Assembly (NCBI GenBank): GCA_016719645.1
Contig: JADJYS010000001.1
Location: 134,558 to 198,557 of the forward strand
Reading direction: 5' to 3'
Source: a bacterium
GTDB lineage: Bacteria; Krumholzibacteriota; Krumholzibacteriia; LZORAL124-64-63
Length of the DNA stretch: 64,000 nt
Part shown: positions 3,284 to 63,876 of the stretch, in pieces
Position numbering within the stretch: position 1 is the stretch's first letter
Layout of the letters: each line of letters starts with the position of its first letter
Translations under genes and position numbers: made by a program
The notes under the pieces: generated by a model
Databases searched by the model: none
Seen by the model: the letters and a program-made list of their open reading frames with translations, nothing else
Told to the model about the DNA's origin: nothing

Positions 3284-4200
3284 ATGATGTCCAAGAAGAT
3301 GAGCTTGCTGCTGCTGTCGCTCCTGGTGGTGGGGCTGGCCGGTTCCGCCCAGGCCACCCGCTGGGACGCCTTCAGCGCCACGGCGGATTGCGAGGGCTGG
3401 TCGATGGAGGGCTTGGTCAAGATCGGTGCCAGCCACCCCTACGTCGACGTGGAATACGCGGTCGCGGCGACCCGCGACGGCGCCGTGCTCGAGGAGCACA
3501 CCGGCACGGTCCGGCTCGAGATGGACGCCGACGCCGTCCCGATGGAGGCTTCCGGGGAATGGTCGCAGGACCTCACCGGCGACGTCACGGTGATCGGGAC
3601 CTTCTTCCTGCCCTTCGTGACCAGCGGCGACACGATCAAGACCTTCGAGCAGGTGCTGGACTGCGGCGGCGACACCCCGGTCGTGTGCGCCCACCGCCCG
3701 GCCTGGTGGAAGCGCCACTGCCACGAGTGGCCCGTCAACCAGCTGCGGATCGCCAACCACCAGCGCAGCAAGCAGGAACTGCTGTGCGTGCTGCGGATGC
3801 CCGCCCTCACCCTGCAGGTGCGTCTGGCCCGCCAGCTGATCGCCGCGAAGCTGAACGTCGCCGCCGGCGTCGAGGACACCGCCGCGGCGTCGATCGCCGC
3901 CGCCGACACCTTCCTGGCTTCGCGTCCCTGGTACAGCTGCCTGTCGCACTCCGCCCGCGCCGAGGCGCGGCGCCTGATCCACGAGCTGCGCGAGTTCAAC
4001 CGCGGCAACTGCGGCTGCGGCAACAAGGCGCTGGCCGGGGCGCAGGATCCCGACGTGGACGAGGCCGACGACGCCGAGGACGCCGACGACCTGTACGGCT
4101 GGGGCGACGTGAAGTCGATGTACCGCTGGATGCTGACCCGTCCAGGGCCGCCTTCCCTGCAGGGGGGGGCGGCCGACGTTCTGCCGGTGCGCCGGCCGGG
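3284..4200 (+). CDS. secreted Cys-rich hypothetical protein (signal peptide); 3' end uncertain because the reading frame runs into dus
   Basis: ATG with signal peptide MMSKKMSLLLLSLLVVGLAGSAQA. Coding-like codon usage runs to about 4140. The same frame then stays open to 5356 across dus in a different frame, giving R/P-rich junk. A G8 homopolymer sits at 4162-4169. Confidence 0.5.
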
Positions 4201-54955: not shown

Positions 54956-55367
54956 CGTGGACGGCGACCGGTTGACGGGGCCCCTGCCCTGGACCTGCGA
55001 GCGGGGGGAGGGGCGCCTGGCCGTCCGGCTGGAACTCCGCCCCCAGGGGCGCGACCTGCTGCTGCTGATCGGCGGCGGCGCGGTCCACGCCGGCGCCGTG
55101 GCCGTCGCCTCGCCCGCCGGGGGCACCGCCGGGGAGCCCTGCGACGAGCTGGCGGTCGTGCCCGGCCACAAGGAAGGCCCGCTCGCCCGCGAAGGCGCGC
55201 GGCGGCTGGCCGCCGCCTCGGGCCGCACCTGCGTCGCGGTCGCCGGCATCCACCAGGACCGCGCGACGCCGGACGAGATCGCCGCGATCGTGGCGCACGC
55301 CCGCGACGCCCTGCACGACCTGGCCGACGCCCTGACGCGCCGGCGCCGAGAGGAAGGAACGGCATGA
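54956..55367 (+). CDS. hypothetical protein (co-oriented with, and ATGA-overlapping, suhB)
   Basis: Strong third-position GC bias in this frame. No recognisable family. Start uncertain between 54888 ORF start and GTG 54956. Confidence 0.4.
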
Positions 55368-56182
55368 ACCGCGAACTGGCCGCCATCGAGACCACGCTGC
55401 TGAGCTGGACGGACGAGATCGGCGCCATCGCCACCGGCCTGTTCCGCCGCACGGGGGAGCTGCGGTTCAAGCACGGGCAGGAGGCGATCACCGAGGCCGA
55501 CCACCGCATCGAACGGCTGCTGGTCGAACGGATCCGCGCGGCCTTCCCCGGCGACGCCGTCCACGGCGAGGAATTCGGCGATTCGGGCGGCGGCGTCGCC
55601 GCCGCCGGCGGGCGCACCTGGTACCTCGATCCCGTCGACGGGACGCTGAACTTCTCCCTCGGCCTGCCGGACTTCTGCACGTCGGTGGCCCTGATGGAGG
55701 GCGACGAGATCCTGGCCGCGCTGGTCTACCAGCCGCTGCACGGCGAGCGCTTCACCGCGGTGCGCGGCGGCGGCGCCCGGCTCAACGGCGCGCCCATCCG
55801 GGTGAGCGGCCGCGCCCCGCTGAGCGCCGCGATCCTCAGCCTGCAGCTGCAGAAGCGCGGCCGCTTCGTGCAGAGCGCGCCGCTGCTGCAGAAGGTCCTG
55901 CTCGATTCGATGAAGGTCCGCCGGCTGGGGACCATCGCCCTGGAGATGGCCTACCTGGCGGACGGCCGCTACGACGGGCTGCTGGCGGGGCGCGGCCAGC
56001 CGCAGGAGCTGTACGACGTGGCGGCGGGGATGCTGCTGGTGCAGGAGGCGGGGGGCGTCGTGACCGATCACCGCGGCCTGCCCTACGTCCCGGGCTCGAC
56101 CGACCTGATCGGCAGCAACGGCGCGATCCACGACGAGCTGATCGCGCTGATCCGGGAGCACCACGACACGACGCGCGACTGA
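55364..56182 (+). CDS. suhB: inositol monophosphatase family protein
   Basis: DPVDGT and WYLDP-type metal-binding motifs of the IMPase family. Confidence 0.85.
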   Translation: MNRELAAIETTLLSWTDEIGAIATGLFRRTGELRFKHGQEAITEADHRIERLLVERIRAAFPGDAVHGEEFGDSGGGVAAAGGRTWYLDPVDGTLNFSLGLPDFCTSVALMEGDEILAALVYQPLHGERFTAVRGGGARLNGAPIRVSGRAPLSAAILSLQLQKRGRFVQSAPLLQKVLLDSMKVRRLGTIALEMAYLADGRYDGLLAGRGQPQELYDVAAGMLLVQEAGGVVTDHRGLPYVPGSTDLIGSNGAIHDELIALIREHHDTTRD

Positions 56183-56184
56183 GC

Positions 56185-57468
56185 CTAGAGGTACTGCAGG
56201 GCCAGCGCGCCGCTGCCGAGCAGGCCGTAGCTGAGCCAGGCCGGGTCCTCGGCGCCGCTGCGGTCGCGGCAGGCGAGGGCCGCGGCGCGCAGCGAGCTCG
56301 CGACGGTCGCGCCGGCGGCCAGGGCCCGGTAGAAGTCGCCCGCGAAGGCGCGGGCCCGCGGCTGCGACACCGCCAGGTGCGGACCCACCACGGCCGAAGC
56401 TCCCGACATCAGGAACCGCGGGCCGAAGGACGTCAGCCCCAGGTAGCTGTTGGAGAAGACCAGCGGCGGCGTGGCGGCGTGACGCGCCAGATCCTCGGGC
56501 GACACCGGCCCGTCCTCCAGCAGCCAGTGCGCCTGCGCTCCCGACGCCGCATGAGCGTCGCCGCCCCCGGACCACGGGTGCAGGCGGCCCTGTTCGGCCC
56601 GCTCGGAGATGCGGTCCAGCAGGGCGGTGACCGGATCCACGCCGACGGGTTCCAGCTCCAGCTCCTCCTGCGCCGACATCATGAGGTCGCGGGCCAGGGA
56701 CTCCCAGCCCGAGAGCTGCGTCGTGGCCGACGCCAGCTGGGGCGCGGCCGTGGCGCCGCTGAAGTGGAAGCCCTGGTAGCGGCGGCCGGTGCGGGCCAGG
56801 CGGCCCGGGGTCATCGCGCCCGCCGGCGACTCGAGCCAGGCCAGCCTCTGACCGTCGCCCAGCCGGGCCAGGGCCTCGTCCAGCATGGCGCGCTCGAGGC
56901 GCGCCTGCACCGTGCCGTCGCCGCGCCCGTGCCCGTCGAGGAACAGGACGCCGGGGTCGGCGCAATCCTCGGGGCGGAAACGCCGCACGACCTCGCCCAG
57001 CCGCGACGGGCCCTGCGTCTGCTCCGTCTGGATCTGGTCCTCCCAGCGCCGGGACCAGGCGCCGCGCCGGGCGGACTTGAGCGAGCTGCGCCGGTCGGCG
57101 CAGATCGGGGCCATCTCCAGCACGAAGCGGATGCCGTTGTGCAGGCAGGACCAGGGCAGGACCAGGTCGTCGGTCGCCACCACCAGGTGGTAGCCGATCG
57201 GGGTCTCGGCGGCGGCGCCGGCCAGGCTGGGGGAGGCGGCGCCCACGTCCGGACGCTCGGGGGCGAAGGCCGCGGGGTTGCCGGTCTGGGCGGCCCGGAA
57301 CAGCAACTGCCCGAGCTCGGTCATCGCCGCGTGGACCGCCGGGCTGTCGAGCCCCTCGGTCTGCTGCAGGCGCACCAGCCGCTCGCGCTGGGCGTGCGCG
57401 CGGTCGAGCAGACCGCGCCGGGTGGTCGCGTCCTGGCCGCGAGTCAGATCGATATCCAGCCACTGCAC
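56185..57468 (-). CDS. CHAT-like (caspase-fold) domain protein with catalytic Cys apparently replaced (pseudo-protease?)
   Basis: His-Gly motif VLFLDGHG. The position of the usual CHAT Cys reads LVFSNSYLG. C-terminal ...AWLSYGLLGSGALAL resembles the CHAT C-terminal strand. GTG start. Confidence 0.5.
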   Translation of the reverse strand: MQWLDIDLTRGQDATTRRGLLDRAHAQRERLVRLQQTEGLDSPAVHAAMTELGQLLFRAAQTGNPAAFAPERPDVGAASPSLAGAAAETPIGYHLVVATDDLVLPWSCLHNGIRFVLEMAPICADRRSSLKSARRGAWSRRWEDQIQTEQTQGPSRLGEVVRRFRPEDCADPGVLFLDGHGRGDGTVQARLERAMLDEALARLGDGQRLAWLESPAGAMTPGRLARTGRRYQGFHFSGATAAPQLASATTQLSGWESLARDLMMSAQEELELEPVGVDPVTALLDRISERAEQGRLHPWSGGGDAHAASGAQAHWLLEDGPVSPEDLARHAATPPLVFSNSYLGLTSFGPRFLMSGASAVVGPHLAVSQPRARAFAGDFYRALAAGATVASSLRAAALACRDRSGAEDPAWLSYGLLGSGALALQYL

Positions 57469-57635
57469 GGCGGACTCCTCCCGAAAGCGCTAGAAAACGG
57501 GCACCGTCCCCCATTCCAGCAAGGTCCGGACCGGGGTCGGCGGCTGATTGCACCCAACTTCATTATCGGCAGCGTCATGCCTCAACTGTAGGTCCCAGCC
57601 CCGAATTCGTCCCCGCCCATACCCATGCTGCTGTT

Positions 57636-57784
57636 CGACTTGGGTCCGCACATCCTGCCGGGACCGGGGTGTCCTGCAGGCCCTGGAGCCAGGATGGCGG
57701 AAGGGCCGGAAGGCCAAGCGCTCCGGGCGCAGGAGGCGCCCGGAGCGCGCCCCCGGTCCCGGCAGGATGTGCGGACCCAAGTCG
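57636..57784. repeat. 149-bp nested perfect palindrome: 34-bp inverted repeat arms (57636-57669 / 57751-57784) enclosing an inner 13-bp IR hairpin (57718-57748)
   Basis: Outer arm cgacttgggtccgcacatcctgccgggaccgggg is exactly reverse-complemented 81 nt downstream. Inner arms are gcgctccgggcgc-aggag-gcgcccggagcgc. Mirror-image ORFs appear on both strands of the track. Confidence 0.8.
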
Positions 57785-57890
57785 CATCGAGGATGGAACC
57801 AAAAGAAAAAGGCGCCTCGCGGCGCCTCATCCCGGATCCGGACGGTCTGGCGACCGTTCGGGTTCCTCAGCTGTCGATACCGGCGGTGCG

Positions 57891-57977
57891 TGGTGCCCGA
57901 GGGGAGACTCGAACTCCCACGAGGAATCCCTCACTACGACCTGAACGTAGCGCGTCTACCAATTCCGCCACCCGGGC
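57891..57977 (-). tRNA. tRNA-Leu (anticodon CAG) with encoded CCA
   Basis: Manual fold: 7-bp acceptor (one G-U), D-arm, anticodon stem ctacg/cgtag with loop uuCAGgu, long variable-arm hairpin, T-arm gggag-ttcgagt-ctccc, then CCA. Confidence 0.85.
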
Positions 57978-58166
57978 TCCACCGTCGGCTGCAGGAGCGG
58001 TGGGCTGACGCCCGGTGCTCCGCGAGGGGCAAATCTAGAGGACGCCTCCGGACCTGTCAACCCCCCGAGGCCAAAAAGCGGCGGGAAAAAGCGGATTGTG
58101 CCGATCGGGCGCAGATGTTAGCTTCTCACCCCCGGCGCCCGCGATCCCATCCGGTCAGGAGTGACG

Positions 58167-58637
58167 ATGCCCGCGAACCGCGCCGAAAGCGGCGTGAAGA
58201 TCATCGCCAAGAACCGCAAGGCCTTCCACGAGTACGAGATCCTCGATAAGTGGGAAGCCGGGATCGTGCTGCAAGGCACCGAGGTCAAGTCCCTGCGCGC
58301 CGGCAAGTGCAACCTCGGCGACGCCTACGCCGAGATCCGCGACGGCGAAGCCTGGCTGGTGAAGGTCCACATCGGCCCCTACGACCAGGGCAACCGCGCG
58401 AACCACGACCCCTTCCGCCGCCGCAAGCTGCTGCTGACGCGGCGCGAGATCCGCAAGCTGCGGCCGCGGCTCGAGGAGAAGGGCCTGACGCTGGTGCCCC
58501 TGAGCATGTACTTCAAGCACGGGCTGGTGAAGGTCGAGTTCGGGATCGGCCGGGGCAAGAAGCTCCACGACAAGCGCCACGCCACGGCGAAACGGGATTC
58601 CGACCTGCGCATCCGGCGCGAGATGGGACGGCACTGA
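58167..58637 (+). CDS. smpB: SsrA-binding protein
   Basis: IAKNRKAFHEYEI...GTEVKSLR SmpB signature. AGGAG 6 nt upstream of ATG 58167. ORF track GTG 58161 is an alternative start. Confidence 0.92.
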   Translation: MPANRAESGVKIIAKNRKAFHEYEILDKWEAGIVLQGTEVKSLRAGKCNLGDAYAEIRDGEAWLVKVHIGPYDQGNRANHDPFRRRKLLLTRREIRKLRPRLEEKGLTLVPLSMYFKHGLVKVEFGIGRGKKLHDKRHATAKRDSDLRIRREMGRH

Positions 58638-58640
58638 GCC

Positions 58641-60182
58641 GTGGACGCCTCCCGCACATCCCCTCTGGTCTCGAAGGCGCTGCTGCTGGCCGCGGTCGCT
58701 CTGGCGACGACGGTCGTGACGTTTTCCTCCGCGCACGCGGGTCCCTTCCCGGCGGCCGACCCCGACGGCCCGGTCCTGCGCGTCCAGGTCGTCTACCCCG
58801 GCGACCGCGCGCCGGGGTCGATCGAGGCGCGCCGCCTCGCGGCGGGCATGGCCGAGCCCTTCGTCAGCTCGGCCGACGCGGCCCTGATCTTCCGCGCCGC
58901 ACGCTACTGGGATCCCGACCGCCTGCAGCTGACCATGCGCGCCGGCGGCCGCAGCGCCGTGGCCACGGTGAACAGCCGCCACGTCCAGCGCGCCGGCGGC
59001 AGCCTCCTGCTCGCGCTGGCGCCCGTCCACGTCGACGGCGACGTGTGGCTCCCGCTGGAATTCCTGACCGCCGTGCTCGCGCCGGCCGCCGGCGACGACG
59101 TGGACTGGGACCCCGGCATGCAGGTGCTGACCGTGGGCGGCCGGCGCGCCGACCTGCTCACGCTGACGCTCGACGAGACGTCCGACGCCACGACCCTCGT
59201 GCTGGGCTGCGCCAAGGCCCTCGCCTGGCGGCTGGAACGCAGCGCGCCGGACACGCTGGCGCTCACGCTGGACGAGGCGAACGCGGCGCCGGCGCTGCTG
59301 GGGGCGGTGCCCGCCGAGGGCCTGGTCGCCGGCGGCGTGCTCGCGCAGTTGCCCGGTGGCGTGCGCGTCGCGGTGGCGCTCGGACCGCGGGCCGGCGGCT
59401 GGAACGTCGAGACCGCCGAGGATGGGCGCGAGATCCGCCTCGCCCTGCAGGCGCGCGAGGGTGGCGTCCCGGAGGAGCCCGCGCCGGCCGCCGCGCCGGA
59501 CGGCCCCGCGGCGGTCCCGGCGGGGCGCGACGTGCGCGTCGTGGTGATCGACCCGGGCCACGGCGGGTCGGATCGCGGCGCGGTCGGGGACGGCGGGACG
59601 CCCGAGAAGGACCTCATGCTGGACCTGGCCGAAGAGCTCCGCCAGCAGCTGCGGCGCCTGGATTTCCAGGTCGTGCTGACCCGCGACGACGACCGCGATC
59701 TCGAACCCGAGCAGCGCGCCGAGGCCGCGAACCGCGCCGGCGGCGACGTCTTCGTCTCCCTGCACGCCGACGGCTGGTTCGGCGCCGGGGCGTCGGGCGT
59801 CACGACCTTCGCCGCGCCGCAGGACGACGAGCCGCTGCCGGATCTCGCGGACGGTTTCACGCCCTGGCACCTCGCGCAGCGGCGGCACGCCATCGCGAGC
59901 GGCGAGCTGGCGGCGCTGGTCCAGCCGCGGCTGGTCGCCGTGTCCGGCTCGCCCGACCGCGGGATCGTGCGCCTCGACGCGCGCGTCCTGCAGGGCGTCG
60001 ACATGCCCGCGGTGATGGTCGAAGTCGGCTTCCTGACCGATCCGGGCCAGGAGCGCAGCCTGCTCGACGGCGGCCGGCGGCGCGAGCTGGCCGCGGCGAT
60101 CGCCGAGGCCGTGGCCGCCTTCCGCGGCGGCGGGCGGGACGGCAAACCCCGCGCGTCGTCGTCGCAGGAGGAACCCTGGTGA
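58641..60182 (+). CDS. amiC: N-acetylmuramoyl-L-alanine amidase (Amidase_3) with N-terminal AMIN domain
   Basis: Signal peptide. AMIN-like N-terminal domain. Catalytic VVIDPGHGG...E...H Zn-amidase motifs. GTG start. Confidence 0.85.
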   Translation: MDASRTSPLVSKALLLAAVALATTVVTFSSAHAGPFPAADPDGPVLRVQVVYPGDRAPGSIEARRLAAGMAEPFVSSADAALIFRAARYWDPDRLQLTMRAGGRSAVATVNSRHVQRAGGSLLLALAPVHVDGDVWLPLEFLTAVLAPAAGDDVDWDPGMQVLTVGGRRADLLTLTLDETSDATTLVLGCAKALAWRLERSAPDTLALTLDEANAAPALLGAVPAEGLVAGGVLAQLPGGVRVAVALGPRAGGWNVETAEDGREIRLALQAREGGVPEEPAPAAAPDGPAAVPAGRDVRVVVIDPGHGGSDRGAVGDGGTPEKDLMLDLAEELRQQLRRLDFQVVLTRDDDRDLEPEQRAEAANRAGGDVFVSLHADGWFGAGASGVTTFAAPQDDEPLPDLADGFTPWHLAQRRHAIASGELAALVQPRLVAVSGSPDRGIVRLDARVLQGVDMPAVMVEVGFLTDPGQERSLLDGGRRRELAAAIAEAVAAFRGGGRDGKPRASSSQEEPW

Positions 60183-63538: not shown

Positions 63539-63615
63539 CGGGGCGTGGCGCAGCCCGGTAGCGCATCTGCTTTGGGAGCAGAGGGTCGCCGGTTCGAATC
63601 CGGCCGCCCCGACCA
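63539..63615 (+). tRNA. tRNA-Pro (anticodon TGG) with CCA
   Basis: Manual cloverleaf: cggggcg acceptor, gcgc/gcgc D-stem, tctgc-uuUGGga-gcaga anticodon arm, gccgg-ttcgaat-ccggc T-arm, discriminator A, CCA. Confidence 0.85.
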
Positions 63616-63704
63616 CCAACTCCGGTGCCGAGTCTTGACACTCCAGGACGCTTGGACCATTATGTCCGTCCGTGCCTCGACGAGAGCGCGGGCGCACGAT
63701 ACTG

Positions 63705-63781
63705 GCGCCTGTAGCTCAGTTGGATAGAGCACCGGACTTCTAATCCGGCGGTCGCAGGTTCGAATCCTGCCAGGCGCGCCA
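63705..63781 (+). tRNA. tRNA-Arg (anticodon TCT) with CCA
   Basis: Manual cloverleaf: gcgcctg/caggcgc acceptor, agttggatag D-loop, ccgga-cuUCUaa-tccgg anticodon arm, gcagg-ttcgaat-cctgc T-arm. Confidence 0.88.
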
Positions 63782-63799
63782 GCTCTGCGGATCTCGGGT

Positions 63800-63876
63800 G
63801 GTGGATGTAGCTCAATTGGCGGAGCCCCTGGTTGTGGTCCAGGTGGTCGTGGGTTCGAATCCCATCATCCACCCCA
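63800..63876 (+). tRNA. tRNA-His (anticodon GTG) with encoded G-1 and CCA
   Basis: Manual cloverleaf: extra 5' G pairs with discriminator C. cctgg-uuGUGgu-ccagg anticodon arm. gtggg-ttcgaat-cccat T-arm. Confidence 0.88.

Follow-up and report, generated by a model that had tools for sequence, protein, structure and literature searches.

A nested perfect palindrome of 149 bp lies between a CHAT-like gene and tRNA-Leu(CAG) in a 64,000-nt stretch of contig JADJYS010000001.1 (hereafter the window; GC content 72.6%). [quoted passage not shown] The family would be new within a known kind, the small dispersed palindromic repeats. In total, ten units were found in six independent assemblies of related uncultured bacteria. 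They occupy at least four sites: the spacer between tRNA-Leu and the CHAT gene (locus 1), the 3' end of gdh and the 3' end of a variable gene beside the tmRNA gene ssrA (both locus 2), and the site on the short contig L029.

The initial annotation had described perfect arms of 34 bp, an 81-nt spacer and an inner 13-bp inverted repeat with an AGGAG loop, placed between the CHAT-like gene and tRNA-Leu. A repeat search recovered the same geometry at the same place, with both inverted repeats 100% complementary. The longest perfect inverted repeat with a spacer of up to 300 nt measured 13-18 nt in 30 dinucleotide-preserving shuffles of the window as against the observed 34 nt, and the arm pattern had a chance expectation of 0.00. 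RNA folding yielded -138 kcal/mol (z = -12.5); the two strands gave -138 and -135 kcal/mol at z-scores of about -12, and DNA folding resulted in -87.5 kcal/mol (z = -11.8). As the annotation had held, no coding feature explained the element. All six frames of the unit are open solely because of the high GC content, and the substitutions between units are paired-stem changes and not codon-like. Within the window, no second copy of the arm was present at up to three mismatches, and neither sensitive BLAST nor a covariance-model scan with filters off revealed a second unit or a short remnant.

Copies of the repeat in related genomes

Syntenic loci were obtained from metagenome bins via homologues of the CHAT-like protein, and the spacer between smpB and the CHAT gene was aligned. 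The depositors had labelled these relatives as Latescibacteria, 'Gemmatimonas sp.' or, more distantly, Krumholzibacteriia. In the independent JGI assembly L015 (CHAT 93% identical) the unit occupies the identical site; its 68 arm bases agree throughout with those of the window, and of its 81 spacer bases 5 differ, two of these five being both sides of one predicted pair. The interior is missing in L014 (CHAT 98%) and in L016 and L017 (88%), which contain only a short hairpin, ATTGTCCC-N12-18-GGGACAAT, with CATGC in its loop. Both the flanking DNA and the CHAT gene of L014 are about 97-99% identical to the window. Relatives at 51% identity retain the neighbourhood from smpB to CHAT, with a gene of the PF01663 phosphodiesterase family in between and a 191-nt spacer upstream of CHAT that contains no unit. 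The orthologous site is thus polymorphic as in a MITE, with the module in the window and L015 and the outer hairpin only in L014, L016 and L017. Judged from these alignments, the element at the tRNA-Leu/CHAT site is lineage-restricted and dispensable, since its interior is absent from a close relative and the window copy is partly deleted.

Units at other loci were found through the protein database. Gene callers often set spurious open reading frames (ORFs) over GC-rich intergenic DNA, and the six-frame translations of the element were therefore concatenated and used as a query, which led to the predicted proteins P0069 and P0070 on contigs L018 and L019. These contigs carry the element between the genes of glutamate dehydrogenase (gdh) and fructose-bisphosphate aldolase (fba). 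A covariance model, R1, was built from four units, and a second model, R2, was also used. Scans with R1 and R2 detected divergent units, termed B-type, in inverted orientation about 0.8 kb from the A-type units of L018 and L019. The gdh cluster led to L030 and L031, each with an A and a B unit, so that these four contigs hold two units each, at several loci as expected of a MITE. A full HMMER search with one frame yielded P0071 on the 664-nt contig L029, which contains two tandem units inside one pair of outer flanks. Of the options raised in the initial annotation, it was the behaviour of a MITE or REP that gained from these results, with further units at other loci and an orthologous site that differs between close relatives.

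At locus 2, unit B overlaps the gdh stop codon. Unit A starts 0-30 nt past the stop codon of the variable gene, and its far end lies immediately ahead of the TTGACA box in the tmRNA promoter. Neither gdh nor the variable gene is followed by a canonical terminator, whereas the tmRNA gene has one. The inverted B and A units bracket a gene for a secreted-looking protein of 210 or 226 aa (L030 11618-12298, plus strand; L019 5794-6426, minus strand). Between L019 and L030 this gene is 46% identical at the protein level and 52-75% at the DNA level, as compared with DNA identities of 98-99% for the flanking gdh and 99-100% for the tmRNA gene. The drop in identity starts and ends inside the units. The bracketed protein has an N-terminal signal-like segment and a faint similarity to DUF3108. 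The tmRNA gene (RF00023, 174-179 bits; L030 12585-12942, plus strand; L018 5691-6048, plus strand; L019 5122-5480, minus strand) lies 83-84 nt downstream of the A-type unit. The two partners of trans-translation are encoded by smpB and ssrA, and both genes have a unit upstream in the same orientation, the former in the window and the latter at locus 2. The adjacency to trans-translation genes and the bracketing of the variable gene could be coincidences, given large tolerant intergenic regions and possible diversifying selection.

Further details of the retrieved contigs concern their annotation and quality. Public gene calls run through the units in P0069 (L018 5001-5759), P0070 (L019 5001-5780) and P0071 (L029 145-660); the L019 call also runs antisense through the tmRNA gene. 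The products are spurious or chimeric 'proteins', and it was their existence that made a six-frame protein search practicable for finding non-coding repeats. The units of L029, a low-coverage contig, are located at 181-355 and 389-556. The second of them has unrelated sequence in place of its left arm, and its hairpin 1 combines a perfect stem of 13 bp with the loop AGGAG.

Other searches revealed no additional member of the family. Scans for exact 20-mers of the arm returned only chance matches of single arms (four in GTDB genomes, six in JGI metagenomes, none in IMG/VR); the metagenome scan missed L015 (Ga0071116_1000369, 3685-3833), which contains the exact 20-mer twice, so that the scanned collection was incomplete in comparison with the protein-linked contigs and the negatives of these scans are weak. 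A 26/28 match to the arm in three unrelated soil-metagenome contigs (L008 12909-12936, L009 7619-7646, L010 7280-7307) was rejected as a probable chance extension of the forced 20-nt match. It lies in a protein-coding gene ('LFGPHILPG' in ...ALFGPHILPGR...) together with a further GCTGTTCG match beyond an in-frame gap of 6 nt, and these contigs showed neither a second arm nor a tRNA. When the B-type unit was used for a six-frame protein search, nothing matched. No plasmid, phage or viral match was obtained when the unit was compared with plasmids and phages and the core pattern with viral contigs. Exact-protein look-ups of the SmpB, CHAT and inositol monophosphatase proteins of the window returned short contigs or nothing.

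Architecture of the unit and paired substitutions

Locus 1 and locus 2 are homologous over 209 nt, from TGCGA(A/G)AT(T/C)GTCCCC to GGGAC(A/G)AT, and in L018 the palindrome reaches ACCGGTTC...GAACCGGT, which extends the full unit to about 237 nt. The recognisable module of core and stem comprises about 175 bp. Units of 175-237 nt, non-coding and without a Pfam-bearing ORF, are in the range of MITEs, which measure less than about 500 bp; the GC content of the family is about 70%. From outside to inside, a unit consists of an outer stem (ATYGTCCC/GGGACRAT), a CATGCTG/CAGCATG stem, a 5x5 bubble, the 34-bp stem and a three-way junction with two GC-rich hairpins, both of which have loops that read AGGAG, AGGAU, ACGAG or AGGAA. 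The 34-bp perfect repeat and the outer paired segments correspond to the terminal inverted repeats of a MITE, with arm sequences that differ between A- and B-type units. In an alignment forced by the structure the arms of the two types are 56-63% identical, yet both measure 34 bp; the cores are about 70% identical.

The palindromic unit of the window exceeds 149 bp, since the covariance model matches 57624-57797 and the homologous flank begins near 57603. The copy is truncated on the tRNA side. Compared with L015, a deletion of 22-23 nt between 57795 and 57796 took out the right CAGCATG and GGGACAAT outer stems, and with them the partner of the left outer-stem remnant (Table 1). The asymmetric first part of the core gives the unit its orientation and has 0-5 differences from the window in other A-type units (none in L019_A); its junction-helix pair T57677/A57713 is C/G in L015. 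In core hairpin 2, a G-C pair is replaced by A-T in the units of L018, L019 and L030, and the loop occurs in the variants ACGAG, AGGAT and AGGAA.

Covariation was computed on seven units aligned to the covariance model. Standard pairs made up 95.9% of the cells as compared with about 38% in controls with slid partners, and 29 of 71 pairs changed on both sides, values that were reached in 0 of 500 shuffles. Covariation was strong in all five helices. The main stem contains 34, 34, 33, 34, 32, 34 and 31 Watson-Crick pairs out of 34 in the seven units. Cells that deviate from Watson-Crick pairing were G.T in 11 cases (four of them one conserved outer pair), A.C in 5 and others in 15, without a strand preference. 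Even at a gdh identity of 96-99%, units of different genomes are already separated by paired changes. At arm position 26, the window has G/C, L018_A has T/A and L030_A has A/T; in the B units, A/T of L019_B stands against C/G of L030_B. To judge from this divergence, it is very unlikely that independent double changes were fixed by selection within so short a span. The nearly pure Watson-Crick pairing without strand bias, the paired changes between close relatives, the dispensability and the varying orientation together point to a palindrome maintained at the DNA level rather than to a strand-specific RNA.

The initial annotation had stated that perfect palindromes are unstable unless selected for, which is half the story. 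Imperfect inverted repeats are corrected to perfect ones by template switching (PMC5941160, PMC7202029, PMC8604942), and such templated correction can keep arms perfect without selection (PMC5941160, PMC7202029). Correction of quasipalindromes would account for arms that drift in sequence yet are perfectly complementary, and for the paired changes in close relatives (PMC5941160, PMC7202029, PMC8604942). It is, however, a mutational process and not an element family, and its operation in these genomes is deduced from the pattern.

Two further patterns in the core and flank were noted. Read in the inverse orientation, a stretch of the core (57684-57702) matches the 5' end of the adjacent tRNA-Leu gene, together with 4 nt of its leader, at 17 of 19 positions (57963-57981; TGGAGCCAGGATGGCGGAA vs TGGAGCCCGGGTGGCGGAA). 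This tRNA-like stretch occurs in all A-type units, even away from tRNA-Leu, and is weaker in B-type units. An origin of the core from a tRNA was rejected: the local E-value is about 0.02, B-type cores are without it, and no tRNA is recognised at this place by ARAGORN or Rfam. A general rule by which arms evolve faster than the core was likewise rejected; it is true for A- versus B-type and for the window versus L019_A, whereas the window and L015 show the opposite. Abutting the unit, the window patch 57540-57620 is only 81% identical to L014 as against 97-99% elsewhere, and L014 and L015 are 96% identical there. At some positions of the patch the window matches the locus 2 unit (TCGTCCCCGCC) and not its own orthologue, a pattern that hints at ectopic conversion between units.

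Known repeats and competing explanations

Location after 3' ends, long hairpins and truncated or short derivatives are hallmarks of MITE/REP-type repeats. The definition of MITEs and their bias towards 3' untranslated regions have been described (PMC10969869), and the documented consequences of repeats of this type include processing by RNase III and changes in the expression or stability of genes nearby (PMC2229807, PMC2649163, PMC10969869). The Correia elements of Neisseria (CREE/NEMIS) are similar in being non-coding intergenic sequences of roughly 100-160 bp with inverted repeats around a conserved core, a long hairpin if transcribed and presence or absence among strains (PMC2649163, PMC2229807); they bind IHF and RNase III (PMC2649163). 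CREE differ from the present family by terminal inverted repeats of 26 bp that are conserved, a duplicated TA target and copy numbers in the hundreds, whereas the units described here have arms unconserved between subfamilies, a GC content of about 70% and extra nested outer stems.

YPAL/RU-2 of Yersinia and ERIC/IRU of enterobacteria are imperfect or nested palindromes of 127-168 bp that are not AT-rich, contain internal inverted repeats and insert at or beside dyad symmetry, often in 3' untranslated regions (PMC2229807). YPAL itself has 168 bp, internal inverted repeats and the same non-AT-rich composition, and targets dyad symmetry (PMC2229807). The present units share no sequence similarity with them, belong to another host lineage and have a perfect and much longer 34-bp stem with two AGGAG-loop hairpins. 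REP/BIME sequences and the REP-like truncated MITEs of Coxiella (QMITE2) are extragenic palindromes after stop codons, in which truncated and full units coexist and a role as 3' hairpin is plausible (PMC10969869). REP sequences are imperfect palindromes of 20-40 nt with a very high copy number and are associated with RAYT transposases; the nested unit, five to ten times larger, is too large for a REP, and no RAYT was present among the 34 scanned ORFs of the window, the set to which all protein-based negatives for the window refer.

Several observations weigh against a MITE-like origin. The ORF scan revealed neither an autonomous element nor a transposase with matching ends. The arm sequence is unconserved between subfamilies, which is atypical for a MITE, and conservation is the reverse of the classical case: between A- and B-type units the arms have almost no sequence in common, though they are of one length and pair perfectly, and it is the core that is kept, with its AGGAG loops. 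Such turnover of arms around a kept core would likewise be compatible with a structured molecule that has a function, or with a core bound by protein. A target-site duplication was not demonstrated. CATG/GCATG flanks the inner module on both sides in L015, and the short hairpins of L014 and L016 contain it a single time; the motif is, however, palindromic and situated within the larger unit of the repeat. The outer stem is still present in every close relative at locus 1, so that no virgin empty site is available. The short hairpin of L014 and L016 may have arisen by internal deletion between the CATG repeats, or it may be an older short hairpin that was entered by the inner module.

As a MITE/REP-like repeat, the unit would behave as selfish or neutral intergenic DNA of the MITE, REP, Correia and YPAL kind. 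Its place would be directly behind the 3' end of a transcription unit; between close relatives it could be acquired or stripped of its interior, and it could also undergo tandem duplication or bracket a variable gene. The complementarity of the arms would be upheld at the DNA level, either by template switching between arms or by gene conversion of whole units between copies; selection on one RNA strand is a less likely cause of their perfection. The gdh and variable-gene units at locus 2 would be transcribed as a 3' tail with a very stable hairpin, which could block read-through and exonucleases or be cut by RNase III, as in other such repeats. Units A and B are therefore expected to act as effective 3' hairpins of the upstream messages, and the window unit beyond the tRNA-Leu terminator is probably near neutral.

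Among the competing explanations, a functional structured RNA, either a gene of its own or a cis-acting element, was considered unlikely though it draws on several lines of evidence. The 34-bp stem would be the scaffold and the two-hairpin AGGAG/AGGAU core the active part, for example as a sponge for a GGA-loop binder of the CsrA/RsmA type, or with CUCCU loops on the opposite strand that pair with Shine-Dalgarno sequences. This idea is in keeping with the strong covariation of all helices, five in number, the very stable fold, a core kept across A- and B-type units while the arm sequence was replaced, and the A(G/C)GA(G/U/A) consensus of both core loops. Moreover, GCCAGGAUGGC places GGA in a hairpin loop, the type of site that CsrA binds. 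The covariation did not come with the other features of a strand-specific non-coding RNA: wobble pairs had no consistent strand, and a long stem of essentially only Watson-Crick pairs is unusual for selection at the RNA level. The units have no promoter or terminator of their own, and their context and their orientation to neighbouring genes vary. A perfect RNA duplex of 34 bp would be a substrate for RNase III, and the dispensability at locus 1, where the interior is absent from a relative with flanks about 97-99% identical, also argues against a functional RNA.

Rfam gave no match to the unit, including 6S, SRP, Y RNA-like families, ribozymes and CsrB/Rsm. A cmscan at E-values up to 1 over 56500-59000 returned only the tRNA and a chance miRNA match, and at locus 2 only the tmRNA reached its gathering score. 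An nrdJ match that covers the B unit stays below its threshold (20.5 bits, threshold 40.3; E = 0.72) and looks like chance. Retron, attC, ribozyme, 6S, SRP and Y-RNA assignments were rejected, as there was no Rfam match and no reverse transcriptase or integrase nearby. A broader version of a functional module was also judged improbable. In this version the AGGAG-loop core would bind a protein, an mRNA or ribosomal RNA and be presented by a drifting 34-bp stem, with units placed by trans-translation genes and an inverted pair delimiting an exchangeable surface-protein gene.

There is only a small chance that the units serve as boundaries or hot spots of recombination for cassette exchange, much as in minimal mobile elements or integrons flanked by MITEs, with the window copy as a solitary site by tRNA-Leu. 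The inverted B/A pair that exactly brackets a gene of 46% protein identity between near-identical flanks, the fall in identity within the units, the diverged patch abutting the window unit and the proximity to tRNA-Leu/smpB and ssrA, which are classical island-associated loci, would suit such a role. MITE pairs are known to bracket integrons (PMC10969869), and attC sites and MITE-flanked cassettes likewise involve structured palindromic sites beside exchangeable genes, in which pairing and not sequence is kept. However, attC keeps its outer R and L boxes and varies in the centre, the opposite of the present family, and the locus 2 units are mutually inverted, not direct. No integrase or recombinase was detected among the scanned window ORFs or among the genes called on the fetched loci. 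An attachment site at the tRNA is not indicated either, as the 3' end of tRNA-Leu is not duplicated (its 3' 28-mer is present once in the window at up to three mismatches). The CHAT gene beside the window unit is not variable (97-99% versus L014); its synteny marks it as a conserved chromosomal gene and not island cargo. Diversifying selection could be a simpler reason for the variability of the bracketed gene, and only one such gene is known.

It appears highly improbable that the palindrome is dedicated to terminating or insulating transcription of tRNA-Leu, or that it regulates the CHAT gene as a 5' structure. The unit does lie between the tRNA-Leu terminator and the CHAT start, and the locus 2 units occupy terminator positions. 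The initial annotation had proposed a bidirectional super-terminator downstream of tRNA-Leu, which was not supported: the tRNA is served by a canonical terminator that is kept in relatives irrespective of the element, and this terminator (57828-57809) was the only one found by a scan for intrinsic terminators. The element has no U-tract and no T-run on either strand. The CHAT upstream region is kept without the unit in the 98% and 88% relatives, and the 51% relatives have the 191-nt spacer mentioned above. An artefact in the form of a fold-back chimera, which multiple displacement amplification or assemblers can produce as perfect long palindromes and for which one might cite that exact-match smpB contigs from other samples break near the region, is almost certainly wrong, since the palindrome is internal to the contig with an asymmetric 81-nt core, the same unit with five substitutions occupies the same site in the independent assembly L015, and nine further units with coherent covariation were found in five other assemblies, one of them long-read-looking.

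Genomic surroundings and significance

On the minus strand the order is promoter, tRNA-Leu(CAG), terminator, palindrome, a spacer of 155 nt and the GTG start of the CHAT gene (Table 1). The unit begins about 10 nt past the T-run of the tRNA-Leu terminator. The 34 scanned ORFs encode housekeeping functions (pyrimidine synthesis, ETF, FabH, GatB and others) or have no Pfam match; no transposase, integrase, recombinase or reverse transcriptase was among them.

Table 1 Elements of the window unit and of its surroundings, with positions in the window
Feature	Position	Strand	Remarks
CHAT-like gene	56185..57468	-	427-aa protein, weak CHAT domain; GTG start at 57468, 155 nt past the unit end; context
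Left outer-stem remnant GAATTCGTCCCC GCCCATACC	57603..57623	.	Homologous to left outer stem of full units (L015 GAAATTGTCCCC, L018 GAGATCGTCCCC); BLAST and alignment of locus 1 and locus 2
CATGCTG extension stem and 5-nt bubble CTGTT	57624..57635	.	In full units CATGCTG pairs with CAGCATG beyond the right arm; covariance match begins at 57624
Left 34-nt arm, main stem	57636..57669	.	Watson-Crick 34/34 in window, L015, L018_A and L019_B
Junction helix and core hairpin 1	57670..57717	+	GGCCCT 57679-57684 / AGGGCC 57702-57707; inner GCCA/TGGC; GGA loop 57692-57694
Core hairpin 2	57718..57748	+	13-bp perfect stem 57718-57730 / 57736-57748; loop AGGAG 57731-57735; inverted-repeat search
Right 34-nt arm, main stem	57751..57784	.	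Inverted-repeat and pattern search
Truncated right flank, CATCG AGGATG / GAACC	57785..57800	.	Pairwise alignment of window and L015
Intrinsic terminator of tRNA-Leu	57809..57828	-	8-bp GC stem, then TTTTCTTTT; context, outside the element; kept in L014-L017 with or without the element
tRNA-Leu(CAG)	57891..57977	-	Context
Promoter-like TTGACA-17-TAGATT of tRNA-Leu	58060-58032	-	Sigma-70-like; context
smpB	58167..58637	+	Context

Two other places in the window were noted. The CHAT gene and the inositol-monophosphatase gene (55364-56182, plus strand) converge with a gap of 2 nt, and at this junction (56084-56220) the identity to all relatives dips locally (0.85-0.88); a hairpin-like match to the covariance model there was weak and non-significant (16.7 bits, E = 0.058). 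Near the window end, a cluster of three tRNA genes (Pro-TGG, Arg-TCT and His-GTG) is located on the plus strand at 63539-63876.

If the assignment is correct, a new repeat family from a barely studied uncultured lineage joins the catalogue of small dispersed palindromes. Its covariance model could flag units in metagenome bins, where they break assemblies and give rise to spurious ORFs such as P0069-P0071. The family would provide a natural example of arms that stay Watson-Crick paired while their sequence turns over, as expected from template-switch correction, and it advises caution in covariation-based RNA discovery, as 29 'compensatory' pairs alone do not prove an RNA. Were the units functional modules instead, an uncultured phylum would have a novel device for regulation or recombination. 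The units around a hypervariable gene beside the tmRNA gene offer a small lead on cassette exchange in these genomes.

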